NCBI RefSeq assembly: GCF_000812185.1
Contig: NZ_CP007026.1
Coordinates: forward strand, 234,426 to 266,425
Direction of reading: 5' to 3'
Length of the DNA: 32,000 nt
Source: Candidatus Nitrosopelagicus brevis
GTDB lineage: Archaea; Thermoproteota; Nitrososphaeria; Nitrososphaerales; Nitrosopumilaceae
The position numbers and the translations under genes are program-made. Below, piece by piece: positions 3,964 to 26,236 of this stretch. Numbering within the stretch: position 1 is the stretch's first letter; the number at the start of each line of letters is the position of its first letter. Under the pieces are notes generated by a model that worked only from the letters and a program-made list of their open reading frames with translations, was not told where the DNA came from and did not search any database.

Positions 3964-6900
3964 TGTCTGTTACATCTACAAAATCAATTGAAGGAATAAC
4001 ATTTGCAGTCTGGTCTCCTCAGGAAATTAGAAAATATTCTGTTGTTGAAATTACACAGCCTGAAACATATGACGAAGATGGTATGGCTGTACAAGGAGGT
4101 CTAATGGATGGTAGATTAGGAGTTTTAGAACCTGGACAAAAATGTCTTACTGACGGTAATACTGCTGCTAGAAGCCCTGGACATTTCGGTCACATTGAAT
4201 TAGCAGAGCCTGTTTTACACATTGCATTTGTTGACAATATCTACAAATTACTACAATCAACATGTCGTACTTGTGGAAGAATCAAGATGTCTCCTGAAGA
4301 TATCAAAGAATTTTCTAAAATTAAAGAACGTCAAGCATCATACACTGTTTTGTCTCAAAAAAGAATTCCAGATCAAATTCAAGAAAAGGCTAAAAAACAA
4401 AAGGATTGTCCTCACTGTGGAAAATCTCAATACGAATTAATTTTCACAAAACCAACAACATTTGTAGAAAAAACAGAGATTGGTGAAAACAGATTACTAC
4501 CTATTACAATTAGAGAAAGATTATCAATAATTCCTGATGAAGATCTTGCATTATTGGGATATGATCCTAAGACTGCACGTCCAGAATGGTTTGTTTTACA
4601 AGCATTACCTGTACCTCCTGTAACTGTTAGACCTTCAATTATTCTAGAAACTGGAATTCGCTCTGAAGATGATCTTACTCACAAATTAGTTGACATTATT
4701 CGTGTTAATCAAAGACTAAAGGAAAGTAAAGAAGCTGGAACTCCTCCACTAATTGTACAGGACTTGGTTGATCTTTTACAATATCACGTTACAACCTATT
4801 TTGATAATGAAGTTAGTGGAATTCCACAAGCCCATCATCGTTCTGGACGTCCACTCAAAACATTAACTCAAAGATTAAAAGGAAAAGAAGGACGATTTAG
4901 AGGTTCATTATCTGGAAAACGTGTTGACTTTTCAAGTAGAACTGTTATCTCTCCAGATCCAAACTTAGATTTATCTGAAGTTGGCGTTCCTGAAACTGTA
5001 GCCAAAAAATTAACCATTCCTGAAATTGTAACTGATTGGAATATTGAAAAATTAAAAAAATTGGTAATCAACGGTCCATCTACTTTCCCTGGTGTGAATT
5101 ACATTACACGTCCTGATGGTGTAAAAATTAGACTTGACTTTGTTGAAGACCGTTCATTAATTGCTGATTCCCTAGAAATTGGATTCTTGGTTGAAAGACA
5201 TCTAATGGATGGTGATATTGTATTGTTCAACAGACAACCATCACTTCACCAAATGTCTATCATGGCACATTATGTTAGAGTATTACCTGGAAAAACTTTC
5301 AGACTACATCCATCTGTTTGTCCTCCTTACAATGCTGACTTTGATGGTGATGAAATGAATCTTCATGTTCCACAAAGTGAAGAAGCACGTTCTGAAGCAA
5401 TTTTACTAATGAGAGTTCAAGATCAATTAATTTCTCCAAGATTTGGAGGTCCAATTATTGGTGGTCTTCGTGACTTTATCACTGGTGCATACCTCATGAC
5501 AAAAGACGGAACAACTCTATCTAGTCAAGAGTTTGCAAATCTTGCAATGCTTGGAGGATTTACAGGACAACTACCAGAACCTGAAAACAAGAAAGAAAAT
5601 CTCTATACTGGAAAACAATTATTCTCAATATTCCTTCCTGAAGATTTCAATTATGTAATGACATCAAAGTGGTCTAAAGGTACTAAAGGAAAAGAAAAAG
5701 ATGTTGTAATCAAAAATGGCCAACTAATCAGTGGTGTAATTGATAAATCATCAATTGGTGCTGAAGAACCAGAAAGTGTACTACATAGAATTGCAAAAGA
5801 TTATGGTAATGAAAAAGCAAAAATTTTCTTAAACTCTGAATTAATTGTTATCAAACAATTCATCACTCATTATGGATTTAGTTATGGATATGGTGACTTG
5901 GAAGTTCCTGAAAAAGATCGTGAAGGAATCAGTTCTGACATAAATCAAACATATGATGAAGTTTTAGATTTGATTAGTCAAGAAAAGAAAGGAACACTAA
6001 AGGCAACAAGAGGAATGACTACTCAAGAAACTCTTGAAGCATACATTGTAAATAATTTGGGTAAACTAAGGGACAGAGCTGCCACTGCTGCAAATCTCTC
6101 ACTTGATGATGATAATGCGGGTAAAATTATGGCAACTACTGGCGCTAGAGGTTCATCATTAAACGTAGGACAAATGGCTGGCGCCTTGGGTCAACAAGCA
6201 AGAAGAGGTAACCGTCTTAACAAAGGCTACAATAATCGAGTTTTAACTCATTTCGAAGAGCATGAAAATGATCCTGACGCTCATGGATTTGTAAAATCAA
6301 ATTATCGTGATGGTTTATCGACTCTAGAATTTTTCTTCCACGCTATGGGTGGTAGAGAAGGTCTTGTAGATACTGCTGTAAGAACACAGCAAAGTGGATA
6401 CATGCAAAGAAGACTGATCAATGCTTTAGAACATATTAAACTTGAATATGACGGAACCGTTAGAGATCCACACGGTCACATCATTCAATTCTTGTATGGT
6501 GAAGATGGAATTGATGTAGCAAAAAGTGATCATGGTGAAGCATTTAACGTTGATAGATTAATTGAATCTGAAAGTATTGTTGATTCTGGAAAAGCCGCAA
6601 CAAAGGACGAAATTGCACCAATTATCAAAAAATACACTAGTGAATTTAATCCTCGTTTAACAAACGCTGTAAGTAATTCATTAGAAAATTCAAAATTAAG
6701 TAAACAAGGTGTTGAGAAAGTAGCTAAGAAAGGATTATCTTTATACAATAACGCAAAGGCAGAACCTGGTCAAGCTGTAGGAATTGTAACTGCTCAGTCT
6801 ATTGGTGAACCTGGAACTCAGATGACTTTGAGAACATTCCACTTTGCAGGAATTGCAGAGAGAAACGTTACCTTAGGTCTTCCAAGATTAATTGAATTGG

Positions 6901-18779: not shown

Positions 18780-20154
18780 GATAGTCTAGAAATCCATCTA
18801 ATTTGTCTTTAGTTATTTTTGCTCCTGCAGCCGCTTCATGGCCTCCTCCAATTCCATCAAATTGCTCTGCACCTCCTCTCATAAGCTGACTTAGATTAAT
18901 AGAATTTTTACAGCTTGCAGATTTACGAGATGAAAATTTAATCGTGCCCTCTGAACCATCTGTTCTCAAAATTACTATTTTTCCTGAATTTTTTGGAGAT
19001 CCTGCAATTAATGATGATATTGTCCCTGTCATTGTTTCTGGTACTAATCCTTGTGCATTCACCATCACACAGTTTTCCATATTGTTAGTTCTCCATCTCT
19101 CATTTGATAGAACGTTCATGTATTCTCTAATCATACTTCTATATTCTGATAAAATTTTCTCACCTTCCTGTAACATCACATTTCTATCTCCCATGCAAAT
19201 TGCGATGCCTACTCCTGATTTGTTAATGCGACCACAAGAATTCAACATGGTAGAGAATTCTCTTCCATCTCTCAAAAAACTCCTTTTTTCTTCATTTGGA
19301 AATGTGTACGTATATCCAATCAATTCTTCCATTACTTGGGTGGCATTTTCTCCTTGAACAAATTTACTTATTGATTCGATAATGCTTTGTTTTTCTTCTT
19401 GTGATAAATCGGCTGGAACTCTCCATCTTGCTCCATCTTTAAGTTGAATTTTCGCATTGGTTAACATCGCAATGCAGGCATCTCGATTCCATGTCAATCC
19501 CTCAATAAATGGTTGAGATGTAAATGCAATTGCATCTGGGAGTGGTCTTGTCTCTCTGCCTACTAAAAGTAAGTCTAAATCTACGTTTACCAATCCTAGT
19601 TTCTTTGCAGTTTCTACAATCTCTAAATTTTTCCCAGTGAATGCTTTTCTCTCACCTTGATCTTGTCTGTCTCCTAATGCCGACACTACTGCAACTCTTG
19701 ATAAATCCTCATTTTCATTGTTCAGCGCATTTGATGCTAGATATGCCATTCCTCCGGCACAAATCTCCACCCCTCCATCCATTCCAAATTTCCAGGCATT
19801 GATTACTCGCTCATTGTCTTTCTCTTCATCTGAAATCTCGTGGTGATCTAGCATGAGCCAATTATCTGATAATTTCTCGTCAAGCAGTTTTCCAAAGCCT
19901 CCTCCTAAGTCGGTAATTACATGCAAATCTCTTGTCTCTTTTTGCATTTTGTCTACCAATTTTTCACTAAATTCATTAGTTGTTCTGACTGTGCATTTCG
20001 CACCTTGTCGGATTAATGCTTTTGAAATTATTGCACCTGATGTGATTCCATCACAATCGATATGCGTGGTAACTAAGATATTTTTTCTTGATTTTATTGC
20101 ATCAGAAATACGATCTGAAAAATTAGATAATGATTCTTCTAAAACTTTCCCCAT
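18733..20154 (-). CDS. DHH-family phosphoesterase, archaeal RecJ/GAN (Cdc45-like)
   Basis: 473 aa. DHH motifs THIDCDGITSG, ITDLGGG and LDHHE, with a C-terminal DHHA1-like GGGHEAAAGA. It lies directly downstream of rps15 with a TAATG overlap. Confidence 0.8.
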   Translation of the reverse strand: MGKVLEESLSNFSDRISDAIKSRKNILVTTHIDCDGITSGAIISKALIRQGAKCTVRTTNEFSEKLVDKMQKETRDLHVITDLGGGFGKLLDEKLSDNWLMLDHHEISDEEKDNERVINAWKFGMDGGVEICAGGMAYLASNALNNENEDLSRVAVVSALGDRQDQGERKAFTGKNLEIVETAKKLGLVNVDLDLLLVGRETRPLPDAIAFTSQPFIEGLTWNRDACIAMLTNAKIQLKDGARWRVPADLSQEEKQSIIESISKFVQGENATQVMEELIGYTYTFPNEEKRSFLRDGREFSTMLNSCGRINKSGVGIAICMGDRNVMLQEGEKILSEYRSMIREYMNVLSNERWRTNNMENCVMVNAQGLVPETMTGTISSLIAGSPKNSGKIVILRTDGSEGTIKFSSRKSASCKNSINLSQLMRGGAEQFDGIGGGHEAAAGAKITKDKLDGFLDYLESNVTKMPDRDSNQ

Positions 20155-20603
20155 TACTCTAACTGGGCCACTACAGACTTATATTTCCATTTTTGATCTA
20201 TGTCGCCAGTTTTTTTGTAGTGAGTTGATAGTCTGTGAACTTTGGCTTCAACTAATTCCAGAGCTCTTACATTTCTGCTATCTGATTTGTTGTCTTTGAT
20301 ATGTTTTTGAAGATTAACTGCTTTCATTACAATATTATTCAAATCTTCAGGAATATCTGGCATCAGTTTGTTTGCTTTTAGCACATCTGTGATGCTTTTG
20401 TTAATGATTGGTTTAACCAAAGGGATTGCATGTTGATCTCTCAATTTTAAACCGATTTGACTAGATGTCATACCTTCTTTTGCATATTTGGTAATCAATC
20501 CTTCAATTTCTTCATTAGTTTGTTTGACCCATTCTGGTTTTTTTGGATCGATAGGTCTGATTGAATGTGACTTCCCATGGTTATGTGTATGCAGTCTTCC
20601 CAT
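20154..20603 (-). CDS. rps15: 30S ribosomal protein S15 (uS15/S13e)
   Basis: 149 aa. MGRLHTHNHGKSHSIRP start, SQIGLKLRDQHAIP, and a C-terminal RLSTHYKK region. Confidence 0.93.
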   Translation of the reverse strand: MGRLHTHNHGKSHSIRPIDPKKPEWVKQTNEEIEGLITKYAKEGMTSSQIGLKLRDQHAIPLVKPIINKSITDVLKANKLMPDIPEDLNNIVMKAVNLQKHIKDNKSDSRNVRALELVEAKVHRLSTHYKKTGDIDQKWKYKSVVAQLE

Positions 20604-20684
20604 TTTTCTGCCTAAATTACGTACGGAATTAAATGTATCTAGCGAGATTGTTCAAAAAAGTTAAATAATAACGATAGTCAGAAA

Positions 20685-21035
20685 ATGCAGATACAAATGA
20701 ACAGATCAATAGTATTAGGCACACTTCTCGTAGGTGTTTTCTCATTGCCACTAATGTTGGCTGGTCCAGCATTTGCTCAATACATGGGCAGTGGTGGCGA
20801 AGGTGCTCAAGACGGTGGACATCCATCAATGTCTTTGGAAGCTCAATTAGAACTCGCAAAGAGAAAAGTTGACTATGCAGCAGATAATCCAGGTGCAGGT
20901 TCCGGTACTCCATACATGGATGCTGGAGGTGTATTAGGTGCATCAGCTATCGCAGCCGCAATCTTTGGTGGTATCGCAGGTGCTTTCTTCTTAAGAGGAA
21001 GAACCGGAAAATACGCCAAACCAGGAACAGGATAA
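20685..21035 (+). CDS. Small exported, C-terminally anchored membrane protein; candidate accessory AMO subunit (AmoY/AmoZ-like)
   Basis: 116 aa. Signal peptide with AFA-QY cleavage-like site, a Gly/Ala-rich ~55-aa ectodomain, a C-terminal TM helix (VLGASAIAAAIFGGIAGAFFL) and a basic tail. GC content is raised, as in the amo genes. Two minus-strand ORFs overlap it and look spurious. Confidence 0.6.
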   Translation: MQIQMNRSIVLGTLLVGVFSLPLMLAGPAFAQYMGSGGEGAQDGGHPSMSLEAQLELAKRKVDYAADNPGAGSGTPYMDAGGVLGASAIAAAIFGGIAGAFFLRGRTGKYAKPGTG

Positions 21036-21141
21036 TCTCCTTCCTTACTTCTTATTTTATTCCTAAACCTTAGCATTGGCTGATCTCGGCGTCTAATAAT
21101 TAAAAAAAATCTTTATATCGACCTCTGAATTCAAAATATTG

Positions 21142-21411
21142 ATGATTCCTGTATTCGGAACAATCTTGAGTATATTGTCTAGTCTGACCGGACAACTCGG
21201 TCCAAACTATGACCCACTATTCTACGATGTTATGGTATACATCTTTGGAACTATCATGTTCACAATATTCCTACTCGCACTGATTGCGTACTGGGTACGT
21301 ATTCATGGATGGGGATACAAAGATAATCGTGAAAGATGGGTCGATGAACTTGACAAACACTTTGAGAATGAGGGCATCGGTTTAATTCCTGATAACGGAA
21401 AATACTGGTAA
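21142..21411 (+). CDS. Small membrane protein; candidate accessory AMO subunit (AmoY/AmoZ-like)
   Basis: 89 aa from the ATG at 21142; the ORF track uses the TTG at 21139. One weak hydrophobic segment (IPVFGTILSILSSL), one strong TM helix (VMVYIFGTIMFTIFLLALIAYWV), and a charged C-terminal tail. A TATA-like tctttatatcg lies about 25 nt upstream. Confidence 0.6.
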   Translation: MIPVFGTILSILSSLTGQLGPNYDPLFYDVMVYIFGTIMFTIFLLALIAYWVRIHGWGYKDNRERWVDELDKHFENEGIGLIPDNGKYW

Positions 21412-21519
21412 ATTCAATCTCTTTCTTTTCTATTTTATACGCGTCCCTAGTGAAAACTTTGTTCAAAAATCTTTAACCTGATATTCATAATTGACTTGGT
21501 GTTATCTTGCTAGATTCTT

Positions 21520-22041
21520 CTAAAGGTCTGGAGGTAAGAAATCTGCATCCTTTGATGTGTCGTAGTCTTTTGAGGTAAATTCTGCTCTGTACGTATATCC
21601 ATCTTCTATTAACTCGTTGATGAAATGTGGTGATTCTTTACCGTTGACGATAATCTTGGATTTGCTTAGTTCCATATCTCTGATAGGGAAATCCCATGAC
21701 CATAAGAAATGGCCTATCTCAAATGGATATTCCTCAGTCCACTCTGCATAGATGGTTCCATCGTCTGTTAGGGTGTAAAGCGATCTCTGGCATCCGTCTT
21801 CAAATCCTATGTTTGCTGGAATATCTGCTCTGTTCTTGTCTATGTATAATTCCAATTGGGCTGAAATGACAAATTGAGTATCTCGCTCATTTATGCAGAC
21901 TTTGAGAGGATCGTCTTTACTAATCTGACCTTGAATTAGGCTACTTCCAACTCCTACTGTAATTGCAATTATTGCGGTAATTGCTAAAAATCTTAGAGTC
22001 TTTTTTCTCTTTGCTGGATCTCCTAACCCTGGATATTTCAT
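21520..22041 (-). CDS. Uncharacterised N-terminally anchored extracytoplasmic protein linked to amoB
   Basis: 173 aa. Basic N-terminus and one TM helix (LRFLAITAIIAITVGVGSSLI), then a soluble domain with exactly two Cys (C49, C84). I did not recognise a catalytic motif. Confidence 0.65.
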   Translation of the reverse strand: MKYPGLGDPAKRKKTLRFLAITAIIAITVGVGSSLIQGQISKDDPLKVCINERDTQFVISAQLELYIDKNRADIPANIGFEDGCQRSLYTLTDDGTIYAEWTEEYPFEIGHFLWSWDFPIRDMELSKSKIIVNGKESPHFINELIEDGYTYRAEFTSKDYDTSKDADFLPPDL

Positions 22042-22075
22042 AGCAAAACTGGATTAGTTTGGAATAAAGTCTTTT

Positions 22076-22402
22076 CTAAGCCTCTGCTAAATCATCGATA
22101 ATCTCTAAAGTATCAAATTGGTCTTGGTGGTCTGCTATGAAAAATGTAATTGGTGTCGAATCCACTTCGACCCATTCTGACTCTCCTTCGAAAGGCAGAA
22201 AGTCTTCAACTGCCAGATTGTTAGGACCTGAAAATCTAACTAGTACTTTTTGCTTTTTTTTTAATTTGAATGGTAGTTTTAGGACTTTGCCTCTTCTTTC
22301 ATCTTGTATGTTTATTGTATAATCGTCGCCTCGGAATTCTACTTTGCCTTTGAAGTAGCTTTCGTGAATATTCAGATGATCAATTTTGAATACGTGAACC
22401 AT
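22076..22402 (-). CDS. Uncharacterised small cytoplasmic protein next to amoB
   Basis: 108 aa with no TM helix or signal peptide, a Lys-rich centre (KLPFKLKKKQK) and an acidic C-terminus. It lies 34 nt upstream of the 173-aa gene on the same strand, so the two are probably co-transcribed. Confidence 0.6.
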   Translation of the reverse strand: MVHVFKIDHLNIHESYFKGKVEFRGDDYTINIQDERRGKVLKLPFKLKKKQKVLVRFSGPNNLAVEDFLPFEGESEWVEVDSTPITFFIADHQDQFDTLEIIDDLAEA

Positions 22403-22558
22403 GATTGGTTTAACCTATCCGAAGATAAAAGTAAATTGTCATTTTTAATCGTGAGTAAATATTAATCTATACTTAATTATTTGTTAAAAAAATTAAGTAG
22501 ATGAAACTTTGTGTATGCACTTAGATTTGTAATTCAATAAAAGGAAAAAAGAGTGAGT

Positions 22559-23125
22559 TTAGATTACTTGCCAAGGTCGTGTTGCAAATGTGATTACATA
22601 ACCAACTGCAATGATAATTGATTGATATGCGATGTTGGTATATGGAATAGGTTTGAGAATTGGTTCTCCTTCTACAACTACGGTTTGTCCTGGTCCAAGT
22701 CCAGGTCCTACGTGCTCAATGTTCAATTGAGTGTGGACGTGATAAACTCCTGGTTCAAGAGCACGTGCTGAGATTTCATAATCGACAACATCGTTACCTG
22801 GAATGTCAAAGACATTACCTGGTGGATCTCTTGCTAGAATCTCCCATCTGTTACCTGCGTTAGTTGACTCTGAGAAAATTGATGACCATGCACGCATGTC
22901 TGAATCAATCAAACTTACGAATGCACCGCTCAAAGTTAGAACTTCACCGGTTTGGAGGGATTGTCTGTTGAATGTTTCATCCTCAATTCGAATGAAACGA
23001 CTTTGCAATTGTGCTTGTACACCGTGGCCTTCAGCAGTTTGAATCATTGTTGCTACATTAGGTCCAAAGACTCCAACTACCATTACGGTTGCAAGTGCAA
23101 ATGCCATTACTTTTCTATCTACCAT
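22559..23125 (-). CDS. amoB: Ammonia monooxygenase subunit B (archaeal short form)
   Basis: 188 aa. N-terminal signal/TM, then EGHGVQAQLQSRFIRIED, a cupredoxin-like body and a C-terminal TM helix. It closely resembles Nitrosopumilus AmoB as I remember it, and is divergent from amoC. Confidence 0.93.
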   Translation of the reverse strand: MVDRKVMAFALATVMVVGVFGPNVATMIQTAEGHGVQAQLQSRFIRIEDETFNRQSLQTGEVLTLSGAFVSLIDSDMRAWSSIFSESTNAGNRWEILARDPPGNVFDIPGNDVVDYEISARALEPGVYHVHTQLNIEHVGPGLGPGQTVVVEGEPILKPIPYTNIAYQSIIIAVGYVITFATRPWQVI

Positions 23126-23214
23126 TGTTATCCCTTAATTGTAAACGACAGAAATGAGGAATTTAAGTTTTAACTATCGTGTCGATCCACGTTATTTTCC
23201 TCATAAAACATTCC

Positions 23215-23240
23215 AATGTTAATCATTAATGTTAATCATT
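23215..23240. promoter_or_regulatory. Tandem 13-bp palindromic motif in the amoB/amoC divergent intergenic region
   Basis: aatgttaatcatt occurs twice back to back (23215-23227 and 23228-23240). Each copy is AATG-N5-CATT. Confidence 0.4.
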
Positions 23241-23393
23241 AAAATGATGAAAAAAATTAATAAAAAAATTGTATTTTTTAAATTTATAATTGAAAAATTT
23301 ATGAAATTTTCCCATCAAAAAATGAATTTTTTGAATAAAAATCTCTAAATTCCAACCTCGTGGCTTATATTCCAAAAAGCACGTATAGATACT

Positions 23394-23957
23394 ATGGCAC
23401 AAATGCCGGCATTACTCCCAAAAGAAGTCGAAATCCAGAGATTGAAAAAAATCTGGTTAGTAGTCATCGCTATGGGATCAACAGCCGCATCCGTAGAAGT
23501 CGACAACTTTGTCGATGGTTCACTCCATCAGACTTCTATTAGAGATTCAGCATTCACTCCAGCACACTGGTGGTTATACTCTCACTTTGTAGCACTACCA
23601 CTTGGATGGGGATTCGCAGCAATCTATGATAGAAAAGTCCCAGTATTGAGAGGACCAAACAACTCTATGAACACAGGTCTAAAGATGACAATCTTAGGTT
23701 ATCTTGCAACCATGTTTACTATTGGTGTTAACGAGATGTGGCACTTTTGGTTCGTCGAAGAAATCTTCGCAGTTCCAAACCACTGGATGTTCAACATGGG
23801 TGTCGTCGTAGCCTTCATGGGTGCTCTAGCTTACGTAGTTAGAGTCTATGCAAGACTCGTCGAATTAGGTGCAGAAACACCTGGTGAAAACCCATATGTT
23901 GCAGAAATGTACAAAATGGCCCTTGAGGGTAAATTGTACAGCAGATCCATACCATAA
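23394..23957 (+). CDS. amoC: Ammonia monooxygenase subunit C
   Basis: 187 aa. MAQMPALLPKEVEIQRLKKIW..., multiple TM helices, HWWLYSHF and EMWHFW motifs. Matches archaeal AmoC. A TATA-like cttatatt lies about 27 nt upstream of the ATG. Confidence 0.95.
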   Translation: MAQMPALLPKEVEIQRLKKIWLVVIAMGSTAASVEVDNFVDGSLHQTSIRDSAFTPAHWWLYSHFVALPLGWGFAAIYDRKVPVLRGPNNSMNTGLKMTILGYLATMFTIGVNEMWHFWFVEEIFAVPNHWMFNMGVVVAFMGALAYVVRVYARLVELGAETPGENPYVAEMYKMALEGKLYSRSIP

Positions 23958-23959
23958 TC

Positions 23960-23988
23960 AAGTACAAATTCGTACTTTGTTTTTTTTA
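23960..23988 (+). terminator. Hairpin plus T-tract after amoC
   Basis: aagtac-aaattc-gtactt is a perfect 6-bp stem. It is followed by tgtttttttt, immediately after the amoC stop. Confidence 0.45.
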
Positions 23989-24068
23989 TGCTCCTACCTA
24001 ATGGTAGATCGGTTGGTGCCCAGAATCTAGGAAAGACTTTAATAGATTCTGTCGACTGATAATTCTAT

Positions 24069-24431
24069 ATGACACTTCCAAAAGGATTTGGTTCAGGTGG
24101 CGGAGGCGGAGCAGGTTCTGCTGACGTCGAGAAAATGATTGGCCGTCGTGTTGAAAACATGACTGGAATGATCACTGCATCATTTATCGCAGCATGGCTA
24201 GCAACATTTGGTGGTACTGCAGCAGGATATTTTGTATATCCTTGGGCATATCCTACACCAAGCGGACATTATGCATTTATCGTCCTGACCATTATAGAAG
24301 CAATTGGTTACCTCTTCTGTGTCAAAGTTATGGAAGAAGGAACAACTAAGAAAAGTAACGGTATAGTTGGCGGAGTATTAGGTGGAGTCACCATTGGTAC
24401 AATCGCAATCGTTATGTTCGTAGGAAAATAA
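24069..24431 (+). CDS. amoX: AmoX (ORF38-like small membrane protein of the archaeal amo cluster)
   Basis: 120 aa. Gly-rich N-terminus and three hydrophobic helices. It sits between amoC and amoA, as in other AOA. Confidence 0.85.
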   Translation: MTLPKGFGSGGGGGAGSADVEKMIGRRVENMTGMITASFIAAWLATFGGTAAGYFVYPWAYPTPSGHYAFIVLTIIEAIGYLFCVKVMEEGTTKKSNGIVGGVLGGVTIGTIAIVMFVGK

Positions 24432-24439
24432 TCAAACTC

Positions 24440-24462
24440 AGTCCTAAAGGACTTTCCTTTTT
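24440..24462 (+). terminator. Hairpin plus T-tract after amoX
   Basis: agtcc-taaa-ggact stem-loop followed by ttccttttt, 9 nt after the amoX stop. Confidence 0.45.
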
Positions 24463-24482
24463 ATCTATTCTAGTCACGGTTA

Positions 24483-24499
24483 CGTGCGCACGATCTCGG
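24483..24499 (+). promoter_or_regulatory. GC-rich box upstream of the amoA TATA element
   Basis: A perfect 10-bp palindrome cgtgcgcacg (24483-24492) runs into gatctcgg (24492-24499). The TATA-like tttttatata at 24512-24521 lies about 25 nt before the amoA ATG. Confidence 0.4.
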
Positions 24500-24542
24500 T
24501 ATTTTCCCAAATTTTTATATACTAACCGACAGGAATATTTTC

Positions 24543-25193
24543 ATGGTCTGGCTTAGACGATGTACTCACTACTTATTCATAGTAGTAGTCGCAGTCAACT
24601 CAACTTTGCTAACAATCAACGCAGGGGACTACATCTTCTATACTGATTGGGCCTGGACATCGTTTGTAGTATTCTCAATATCTCAAACACTTATGCTCAC
24701 TGTAGGTGCGTGTTACTATCTCACCTTCACTGGAGTTCCAGGAACCGCAACGTACTATGCATTAATCATGACAGTCTACACATGGATTGCAAAAGGTGCA
24801 TGGTTCGCATTAGGTTACCCATATGACTTCATCGTTACACCAGTTTGGCTACCATCAGCAATGCTGTTGGACTTAGCGTACTGGGCAACAAAGAAGAATA
24901 AGCACTCTCTGATACTGTTCGGCGGAGTCTTAGTTGGAATGTCATTGCCACTATTCAACATGGTCAATTTGATCACTGTGGCTGACCCACTAGAGACTGC
25001 ATTCAAGTATCCAAGACCAACGTTACCACCATATATGACCCCGATAGAACCGCAGGTAGGTAAATTCTACAACAGCCCTGTTGCACTTGGTGCCGGTGCT
25101 GGAGCAGTATTAGCCTGTACATTTGCGGCTTTAGGTTGTAAACTTACAACATGGACATACAGATGGATGGCCGCTTGGTCAAAGTGGGATTAG
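24543..25193 (+). CDS. amoA: Ammonia monooxygenase subunit A
   Basis: 216 aa. MVWLRRCTHYLFIVVVAVNSTLLTINAGDYIFYTDWAWTS...WSKWD is near-identical to Nitrosopumilus AmoA as I recall it. Confidence 0.98.
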   Translation: MVWLRRCTHYLFIVVVAVNSTLLTINAGDYIFYTDWAWTSFVVFSISQTLMLTVGACYYLTFTGVPGTATYYALIMTVYTWIAKGAWFALGYPYDFIVTPVWLPSAMLLDLAYWATKKNKHSLILFGGVLVGMSLPLFNMVNLITVADPLETAFKYPRPTLPPYMTPIEPQVGKFYNSPVALGAGAGAVLACTFAALGCKLTTWTYRWMAAWSKWD

Positions 25194-25372: not shown

Positions 25373-26236
25373 TTGGCACAAGAATATAGACAAATTGCAA
25401 TATCGGAGCCAAAACCATTTGTAAAATGGGTTGGAGGAAAAAGGCAACTCATGCAAGAATTGGAAAATAATTTTCCAAAACAATTTGGAACATATCATGA
25501 GCCATTCTTAGGTGGAGGTGCTGTAATGTTCAATTTGTTATCAAAAGAACCAAAATTGTCATGCAATGTATCTGATTTTAACTCTGATTTGATATTGGCA
25601 TATATTACAATTCGTGATAAACTTGGAAAACTCATAGAATCTTTAGAAAACCACTCAAAGAATTACCACGATGATTCTACAGAATACTATTATGAAGTAA
25701 GAAAACAAGAGCCAAAACTACAGATTGAAAAAGTATCTAGATTAATTTTCCTCAACAGGACCTGTTTTAATGGATTATACCGTGTAAACAAAAAAGGTCA
25801 ATTCAACGTACCTCTTGGCAGATACACAAATCCAAATATTGTAAATAAAGAAAATCTAACTTCTGTTAGTAAAATTCTACAATCTGAAAAAATCAAAATT
25901 TCATGCAGAGGTTTTGAGGCAGTTTTAGACGATACCAAAAAGGGTGATTTGATATATTTTGATCCTCCATATCAGCCAATTAGCAGTACTGCAAATTTTA
26001 CTAGCTACACTCATAGAGATTTCACTGAAGATGACCTTGAGAGATTAGCCACTTTGGCAAATCAACTCAATTCCAAAGGCTGTCATGTATTACTCTCAAA
26101 TTCAAATTCCAAAGTTGTTAAGGATATTTTTTCGGAAAAGCATTGGAAAATTTCTTCAATAAATGCAAATCGAGCAATCAACTCTAATGCTCAAAAGAGA
26201 ACTGGACACAAAGAAATCATAATAAAAAATTATTAA
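25373..26236 (+). CDS. Dam-type (D12 class) N6-adenine DNA methyltransferase
   Basis: 287 aa. KPFVKWVGGKRQL, the AdoMet motif EPFLGGGAV, NRTCFNGLYRVN and catalytic IYFDPPY. It needs the TTG start at 25373, because the conserved N-terminal motif precedes the first in-frame ATG. Confidence 0.85.
   Translation: MAQEYRQIAISEPKPFVKWVGGKRQLMQELENNFPKQFGTYHEPFLGGGAVMFNLLSKEPKLSCNVSDFNSDLILAYITIRDKLGKLIESLENHSKNYHDDSTEYYYEVRKQEPKLQIEKVSRLIFLNRTCFNGLYRVNKKGQFNVPLGRYTNPNIVNKENLTSVSKILQSEKIKISCRGFEAVLDDTKKGDLIYFDPPYQPISSTANFTSYTHRDFTEDDLERLATLANQLNSKGCHVLLSNSNSKVVKDIFSEKHWKISSINANRAINSNAQKRTGHKEIIIKNY

Follow-up and report, generated by a model that had tools for sequence, protein, structure and literature searches.

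Assignment of two small membrane-protein genes beside the ammonia monooxygenase cluster of Candidatus Nitrosopelagicus brevis to amoZ and amoY

The question raised by this locus is whether two short open reading frames (ORFs) lying beside the ammonia monooxygenase (AMO) genes of Candidatus Nitrosopelagicus brevis encode the small AMO subunits AmoY and AmoZ and, if so, which ORF encodes which. The two ORFs, of 116 and 89 amino acids (aa), lie on the plus strand of a 32,000-nucleotide stretch (assembly GCF_000812185.1, contig NZ_CP007026.1, positions 234,426 to 266,425), referred to here at its full length as the window. A preliminary description made from the letters alone had proposed that they are AmoY and AmoZ without saying which is which. 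Both ORFs were found at the coordinates given there (Table 1), and it is concluded with high confidence that the 89-aa gene is amoY and the 112- or 116-aa gene is amoZ, each encoding a small single-pass membrane subunit of archaeal AMO. The marine archaeal enzyme drives much of oceanic nitrification, and its subunit makeup was unclear until 2023-2026, AmoX having been the first extra archaeal subunit to be proposed.

The major evidence was the match of both proteins to the published named pair of Candidatus Nitrosarchaeum limnium SFB1. In the paper that defined these subunits (Hodgskiss et al. 2023, PMC10030591), amoY is NVIE_004540 (82 aa, 9.56 kDa), Nmar_1506, and NCAV_0488, and amoZ is NVIE_004550 (123 aa, 12.84 kDa), Nmar_1507, and NCAV_0486. 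Table S16 of the same paper gives the SFB1 locus tags as Nlim_1890 for amoA, Nlim_1891 for amoX, Nlim_1892 for amoC, Nlim_1893 for amoB, Nlim_1896 for amoY, and Nlim_1898 for amoZ. The 116-aa protein matched the NCBI entry "hypothetical protein Nlim_1898" with a database-wide expectation value (E) of 3.8e-25, and the pairwise alignment of the two gave 55% identity over the full length (E 2e-39). The 89-aa protein was aligned to an 89-aa ORF at the Nlim_1896 position of the SFB1 chromosome with 83% identity over 89/89 residues (E 1e-59), the called genes of SFB1 counting exactly from 1890 (amoA) to 1898 (a 110-aa protein). From these two matches and Table S16, the 89-aa protein was therefore assigned to AmoY and the 116-aa protein to AmoZ. 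The proposal of the preliminary description is thus supported by comparison with published sequences, and the pairing it left open is resolved.

The mass per residue of the 89-aa protein is 116.9 Da, compared to 116.5 Da for the published AmoY of Nitrososphaera viennensis, and that of the 116-aa protein is 100.2 Da, compared to 104.4 Da for the published AmoZ. The 89-aa protein contains just two histidines, His55 and His73. The same positions are listed for AmoF of Nitrosopumilus maritimus in the molecular-dynamics setup of a September 2026 bioRxiv preprint on the membrane-bound AMO of that species (10.64898/2026.08.31.748207), in which AmoX, AmoY, and AmoZ are renamed AmoD, AmoF, and AmoG, respectively. 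Fig. S10 of the 2023 paper (PMC10030591) gives AmoX, AmoY, and AmoZ of SCM1 as WP_012215884.1, WP_012215889.1, and WP_012215890.1; the offsets of these accessions fit the locus tags 1501, 1506, and 1507. AmoY and AmoZ of Ca. Nitrosopelagicus brevis are already among the proteins of that figure.

Gene order around the pair was compared with that in related genomes. In a scan with one genome per species, relatives of the 89-aa protein were encoded in 560 genome stretches, and the best of them, in Ca. Nitrosopelagicus sp. AH-580-D06, has a 100% identical AmoY. Locus comparisons use the best 80 of these 560 stretches, all 80 of them from Nitrosopumilaceae; SCM1 and EN76 are not among them. The full order S15-amoZ-amoY-173 aa-108 aa-amoB-amoC-amoX-amoA was found in 41/80 of these species-level loci, while the remainder were mostly accounted for by truncation at a contig end or by one gene without a match, with about a dozen loci rearranged. 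The linkage to amo genes suggested in the preliminary description was borne out. In the window, two genes separate amoY from amoB, this order recurs in related genomes, and amoB lies 1.15 kb past the stop of the 89-aa ORF and 1.87 kb past the first base of the 116-aa ORF, in agreement with the values first noted. The window also agrees with the report that the amoYZ cluster lies one to two genes from amoABCX in Nitrosopumilaceae (PMC10030591).

The adjacency of the pair to ribosomal protein S15 extends beyond this family. In a metagenome-assembled genome of Nitrososphaeraceae, an AmoY homolog (57% identical) lies directly downstream of a 105- to 129-aa ORF sharing 36% identity with the window AmoZ (E 2e-11), and this pair is preceded by SerRS, an 84-aa gene, DHH, and S15. 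The window has this left flank as well. In N. viennensis, the tags NVIE_004540, NVIE_004550, and NVIE_004560 (rps15) mirror this Y-Z-S15 adjacency (PMC10030591). The gene for AmoZ is thus directly upstream of amoY and beside S15 in the window, in Nitrosopumilaceae, and in Nitrososphaeraceae.

Database searches yielded 402 homologs of the 116-aa protein and 123 of the 89-aa protein. Those with a lineage name were from ammonia-oxidizing archaea (AOA) for both proteins and, for AmoY, from Nitrosopumilaceae, Nitrosotalea, or Nitrososphaeraceae. The ratio of nonsynonymous to synonymous substitution rates (dN/dS), calculated against the related loci (74-80 genomes), was ~0.04 for amoY and ~0.33 for amoZ, compared to 0.02 for amoA, 0.02 for amoC, and 0.15 for amoB against the 80 loci. 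With the highest dN/dS, amoZ is the fastest-evolving gene of the cluster, and identity within its family ranges from 45 to 93%. Judged by this conservation, both ORFs are genuine genes under purifying selection.

The strength of the conservation also bears on whether the plus-strand frames are the right ones to consider. Minus-strand ORFs of 67-104 aa do exist at amoZ and amoY, so that one or both of the plus-strand ORFs might be nongenic and the real coding sequence be the minus-strand ORF at 20629-20943, 20873-21076, or 21260-21466. This has practically no chance of being correct, as the plus-strand frames have been kept in 74-80 genomes at dN/dS values far under 1, hundreds of database homologs have matching lengths, conserved TATA boxes precede the plus-strand ORFs, and peptides of the orthologs have been found by mass spectrometry in published work. 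The conservation pattern already refutes the antisense alternative, and because of the plus-strand homologs, the dN/dS values, and the conservation, the overlapping antisense ORFs were deemed spurious. Nor do the automatic labels borne by a few database members offer a better identity. These pipeline names are cbb3-type cytochrome oxidase subunit 3 or MotA/TolQ/ExbB domain for the 89-aa family and F0F1 ATP synthase subunit c, PDGLE domain, or dolichyl-phosphate-mannose protein mannosyltransferase for the 116-aa family, and for neither family do they deserve appreciable credence. Scans against Pfam and NCBIfam gave nothing below E = 0.01 for the 89-aa or the 116-aa protein, and the weak matches were unrelated. 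The labels contradict one another and are of a kind typical for spurious matches to a single hydrophobic or Gly/Ala-rich helix, and the sizes do not fit, a mannosyltransferase having hundreds of residues. All of these labels (cbb3 oxidase subunit 3, ATP synthase c, PDGLE, MotA/TolQ, and mannosyltransferase) were rejected as spurious. The same scans found no family for AmoX or for the 173-aa and 108-aa proteins encoded between amoY and amoB. Sequence searches of the Protein Data Bank (PDB) with both proteins gave no relevant match and were uninformative, since the searched copy was without archaeal AmoA; by the same token, the NmAMO entry 9XJ2 was deduced not to be in that copy yet.

A more serious objection concerns the partner rather than the genes, namely, that these are conserved thaumarchaeal small membrane proteins unrelated to AMO that lie near amo only by way of a housekeeping block (SerRS, DHH, and S15). 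The Nitrososphaeraceae pair does keep with S15, DHH, and SerRS, away from amoABC, Nmar_1506 appears in a 2019 listing merely as an uncharacterized Thaumarchaeota-specific membrane protein (arCOG08672), and the sequences of AmoY and AmoZ themselves carry no sign of catalysis or metal binding. This explanation is nevertheless quite improbable. The orthologs, together with AmoX, comigrate with AmoABC in blue native polyacrylamide gel electrophoresis (BN-PAGE), cross-link to AMO subunits, and are coexpressed and coregulated with them in two species, N. viennensis and N. cavascurensis (PMC10030591), and orthologs were modeled into the electron cryomicroscopy (cryo-EM) density of N. maritimus (10.64898/2026.08.31.748207). 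Furthermore, an elevated GC content at third codon positions (GC3) is common to amoY, amoA, and amoC, and the AmoY/AmoZ family is reported to be exclusive to ammonia oxidizers (PMC10030591). The published data on the complex thus already contradict a purely housekeeping association.

The assignment to AmoY and AmoZ as AMO subunits must itself be weighed against several points. The link of AmoY to its locus tag was made by counting called genes in SFB1, anchored on the named Nlim_1898, and the named comparison is with the SFB1 genes, not with the N. maritimus or N. viennensis sequences themselves. Membership of the Nitrosopelagicus AmoY and AmoZ in AMO would be by transfer from orthologs in other species. 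Most of the remaining points concern AmoZ: its AlphaFold2 model is of low confidence (predicted local distance difference test score [pLDDT] of 53.5), it is without the two-helix disulfide hairpin of N. viennensis AmoZ, and it has a lysine where a "universally conserved" Arg69 is reported (PMC10030591). In N. maritimus, amoZ is less expressed than the other amo genes, and in N. viennensis, AmoZ was partly dissociated from the complex in BN-PAGE, a weaker association than that of the other subunits (PMC10030591). The cryo-EM work is an unrefereed preprint (10.64898/2026.08.31.748207), whose coordinates (9XJ2) are absent from the PDB copy that was searched.

The ORF assigned to AmoZ opens at either of two ATG codons, of which ATG 20697 (112 aa) is more likely the start than ATG 20685 (116 aa). 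In most close AmoZ homologs, which are 112 aa in length, the first residue corresponds to M5, and the family has a nearly invariant "MN" at the N terminus. The TATA box TTAAATA lies at -36 to -30 from ATG 20697 and at -24 to -18 from ATG 20685. It is because of the homolog starts, the "MN" N terminus, and the 30- to 36-nucleotide (nt) spacing, which is typical of archaeal TATA-to-start-site distances, that ATG 20697 is favored. AmoZ lengths from gene callers in related contigs range from 105 to 147 aa due to upstream extensions, and at some loci, the closest in-frame ATG farther upstream touches the TATA box, so that translation cannot start there. For amoY, the codon before the ATG is not conserved, and TTG 21139 is thus not the start.

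A TATA-like box before each ORF had been noted in the preliminary description, and one is indeed present in both cases (TTAAATA for amoZ and TTTATAT for amoY). The amoZ start could be placed in 34 Nitrosopumilaceae loci, and 33 of these have the motif AAAAGTTAAATA upstream of the gene. The amoY element has the same spacing, 24 to 30 nt before the ATG, in 80/80 loci, even in the GC-rich Cenarchaeum, with the consensus AAAGAAATGTATATAT; the element, consisting of a putative TFB recognition element (BRE) and a TATA box, lies at about positions 5960-5978 of the 80 related loci. Owing to this TATA-to-ATG spacing, the amoY mRNA is probably leaderless or nearly so, and the amoY BRE/TATA element offers a clear candidate for a strong AOA promoter of the leaderless type. 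Since each gene is followed by a T-rich tract and preceded by a putative BRE/TATA promoter of its own, amoZ and amoY are probably separate transcription units.

The statement that both genes are more GC rich than the background, like amoA, amoB, and amoC, was confirmed. Both exceed the GC content of the window, 0.341 (0.459 for amoZ and 0.400 for amoY, with amoA, amoB, amoC, and amoX at 0.42-0.45), but the excess in amoZ lies at the first two codon positions. For amoZ, the values for codon positions 1, 2, and 3 are 0.58, 0.52, and 0.27, and its high GC content is attributed to Gly/Ala codons. GC3 is raised about twofold over the background of 0.20 in amoA (0.44), amoY (0.41), and amoC (0.41) and is only slightly above it in amoB (0.27), amoZ (0.27), and amoX (0.28). 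This split across 20154-25193 may reflect differing expression levels or codon selection among the subunits of one enzyme. In N. maritimus, amoY is very highly expressed and amoZ less so (PMC10030591); the GC3 pattern, which can serve as a proxy only, fits this order.

The topology described for AmoY, one strong transmembrane (TM) helix and a charged tail, was reproduced by hydropathy analysis, which placed a single strong TM segment at residues 25-56. The deduced layout comprises a short N-terminal periplasmic helix (residues 2-17), the GQLGPNYDPLFYDV motif, the TM helix (residues 25-55), a charged (acidic/basic) cytoplasmic helix (residues 60-77), and the end IGLIPDNGKYW. The AlphaFold2 model, built on the family alignment, has helices at residues 2-17, 25-55, and 60-77, of which the TM helix exceeds a pLDDT of 90. 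This layout matches the published description of AmoY as a single TM helix with shorter helices on both sides (PMC10030591). A 98-aa metagenomic protein (P0240) was observed to share the AmoY N-terminal motif and TM helix (GQLGPNYDPLFYDV) and to have another C terminus, with CPNCG...CYSC. This C terminus looks like a zinc ribbon, and P0240 may represent a divergent AmoY-like form whose cytoplasmic domain is of another kind.

For AmoZ, residue numbers refer to the 116-aa form unless the 112-aa form is stated. The signal peptide and C-terminal TM anchor of the preliminary description were recovered by hydropathy as an N-terminal hydrophobic segment at residues 7-32, ending in AFA/QY (the slash marks the predicted cleavage site), and a TM segment at residues 80-104. 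The protein is 34% Gly plus Ala, and its tail is basic. The AlphaFold2 model, in 112-aa numbering, consists of a signal helix, a disordered stretch, a helix at 47-63, a loop, and a TM helix at 79-103; the published description likewise names a signal peptide, a disordered region, helices, an extended loop, and a C-terminal TM helix (PMC10030591, supplement).

The two cysteines of N. viennensis AmoZ provided a further comparison. A profile of the AmoZ family retrieved 171 clusters at 50% identity, among them proteins of 123-126 aa that carry E-C-x9-C-x8-[KR]-R, which is the spacing of Glu48, Cys49, Cys59, Arg68, and Arg69 in NVIE_004550 (PMC10030591). The window AmoZ contains no cysteine, so that the Cys49-Cys59 feature is missing, and the hairpin of ~11 residues is deleted in the alignment. 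The disulfide is reported to be confined to Nitrososphaera and Nitrosocaldaceae (PMC10030591) and so does not define the family. The segment LAK-R-K-V of the window AmoZ aligns with LAK-R-R-V, the equivalent of Arg68 being arginine and that of Arg69 lysine. A glutamate (E48 of the 112-aa form) is invariant among 22 sequences without cysteine, its equivalence to Glu48 of NVIE_004550 being ambiguous when the hairpin forms are aligned.

In Nitrososphaera AmoZ, the hairpin is predicted to dock on the cupredoxin domain of AmoB. It is conceivable, though unlikely, that AmoZ of marine Nitrosopumilaceae is a reduced, fast-evolving form from which the hairpin was lost, with the periplasmic contact rewired in a lineage that also gained two marine-specific genes of the cluster, those for the 173-aa probable AmoE and the free 108-aa protein. 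If this were true, the marine enzyme and that of soil AOA would differ in how their periplasmic faces are built.

The preliminary description regarded both proteins as biochemically almost uncharacterized. This is out of date, as orthologs of both are reported in a cryo-EM structure of membrane-bound N. maritimus AMO, which has eight subunits per protomer (10.64898/2026.08.31.748207). From hydropathy and charge distribution, AmoY and AmoZ would each have the N terminus outside and the C terminus inside the membrane, matching the topology and charged tails of N. maritimus AmoF and AmoG. AmoZ would be exported by a cleavable signal peptide (AFA/QY), leaving a periplasmic Gly/Ala-rich segment with one helix and a C-terminal TM anchor, while AmoY would have a single TM helix between a short helix on the periplasmic side and an acidic/basic helix in the cytoplasm. 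According to published work on the orthologs, the helices of AmoX together with those of AmoY and AmoZ would make up the number of TM helices lost from the truncated archaeal AmoB and AmoC. As modeled in the preprint for the N. maritimus orthologs, AmoY and AmoZ would pair into a clamp-like heterodimer that is wedged between neighboring protomers of the trimeric AMO, with their N termini bridging the periplasmic domains and their charged C termini bridging the cytoplasmic sides and contacting AmoH, and the AmoZ helix would stand where TM2 of bacterial AmoB would be. On this reading, AmoY and AmoZ would be structural scaffold subunits and not catalytic ones.

The coordinates of the two genes, their putative control elements, and their neighbors are collected in Table 1. 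The partner subunits AmoB, AmoC, AmoX, and AmoA are encoded in the primary amo cluster at 22559..25193.

Table 1. Features at and around amoZ and amoY, in window coordinates (AmoZ residues in 116-aa numbering)
Feature	Position	Strand	Remarks
Ribosomal protein S15	20154-20603	-	Neighbor on the left of amoZ
Putative amoZ promoter	20654..20667	+	A-run (BRE-like), then TATA box TTAAATA at 20661-20667
amoZ (AmoZ; AmoG in the 2026 preprint)	20697..21035	+	112 aa from ATG 20697; ORF also opens at ATG 20685 (20685-21035, 116 aa)
AmoZ, predicted signal peptide	To AFA/QY, cleavage before residue 32 (DNA 20778)	+	Hydropathy
AmoZ, Gly/Ala-rich periplasmic region	One predicted helix at residues 51-67, then GSGT motif	+	AlphaFold2, low confidence
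AmoZ, predicted C-terminal TM helix	About residues 80-107, then basic cytoplasmic tail RGRTGKYAKPGTG	+	Hydropathy, AlphaFold2
T-rich tract after amoZ stop	21049..21061	+	Possible archaeal oligo-T terminator
Putative amoY promoter	21102..21118	+	A-run (BRE-like), then TATA box TTTATAT at 21112-21118, -30 to -24 from ATG 21142
amoY (AmoY; AmoF in the 2026 preprint)	21142..21411	+	89 aa from ATG; 90 aa from TTG 21139
T-rich tract after amoY stop	21420..21438	+	Possible terminator
173-aa single-TM protein	21520-22041	-	Between amoY and amoB
108-aa soluble acidic protein	22076-22402	-	Adjoins amoB
amoB	22559-23125	-	Pfam Monooxygenase_B, 2.7e-07
amoC	23394-23957	+	Pfam AmoC, 5.2e-14
amoX	24069-24431	+	Assigned by position and His67, as in NmAmoD
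amoA	24543-25193	+	Pfam Archaeal_AmoA, 8.4e-117

Of the two genes between amoY and amoB, the first encodes a protein with one N-terminal TM helix (residues 14-38) and an acidic C-terminal domain and is the positional homolog of Nmar_1505/Nlim_1895. This 173-aa protein is probably AmoE, as judged by position and architecture only, the locus tag not being printed in the preprint. The 108-aa protein is, by position and architecture, the positional homolog of Nmar_1504/Nlim_1894. In the preprint, the Nmar_1504 product is described as a free beta-barrel, cupredoxin-like and similar to the C-terminal domain of bacterial AmoB; it is not modeled as part of the complex, and its conservation is limited to marine AOA (10.64898/2026.08.31.748207). 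The window AmoX has a Gly-rich N terminus (GFGSGGGGGAGS) as well as His67, a histidine position listed for N. maritimus AmoD (10.64898/2026.08.31.748207). Directly downstream of amoA lies a gene for a Dam-like DNA methyltransferase (25373-26236, plus strand). Ca. N. limnium SFB1 has a homolog in the equivalent place, with PF02086 (MethyltransfD12), the linkage being kept across genera.

The existence of AmoY and AmoZ, including the Nitrosopelagicus orthologs, is already known from the 2023 paper (PMC10030591), and no new biology is presented in their identification here. The remaining value lies in annotation, as neither family is covered by a Pfam or NCBIfam model, both proteins go under "hypothetical" or misleading names in public records, and ORF callers often extend AmoZ upstream of its promoter. 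Metagenome annotation and metatranscriptome readouts of AMO expression would benefit from the correct label, the likely start codon, and the conserved promoter elements. A minor lead is marine AmoZ as a reduced, fast-evolving form of the subunit.

Compared with known AmoY proteins (NVIE_004540, Nmar_1506, NCAV_0488, and Nlim_1896; arCOG08672), the window AmoY has the 89-aa length of the other Nitrosopumilaceae members, the motif GQ[IL]GPxYDPLFYDVM, the three-helix layout with one TM helix, His55 and His73, and a site beside amoZ, two genes from amoB. There is no substantive difference from the Nitrosopumilaceae proteins, whereas AmoY of Nitrososphaeraceae differs in its length of 92 aa (82 aa as annotated in N. 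viennensis) and in ending with EKHHW rather than NGKYW and is 51-57% identical. The window AmoZ shares with NVIE_004550, Nmar_1507, NCAV_0486, and Nlim_1898 the A-x-A/QY end of the signal peptide, the LAK[RE][KR]V helix, GSGT, the TM helix (A)IFGG[IV]A(G/A)AFF followed by a basic tail, and the site between S15 and amoY. It differs from AmoZ of Nitrososphaera and Nitrosocaldaceae, in which a Cys-x9-Cys hairpin joins two helices by a disulfide, in having one predicted periplasmic helix.

Two further comparisons lie outside these families. AmoX (AmoD) is, like AmoY and AmoZ, a small helical membrane subunit specific to AOA and encoded in the same cluster; it is Gly/Ala rich and has no Pfam family. 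It belongs to a different family, however, with two to three TM helices, and is encoded between amoC and amoA; no sequence similarity was detected between AmoX and AmoY or AmoZ. According to the preprint, the helix of AmoG (AmoZ) fills the place of the second TM helix of bacterial AmoB/PmoB, which is absent in archaeal AmoB, and would act as that helix does. AmoZ differs from that helix in being a separate gene product, and homology between the two is only suggested by the preprint.

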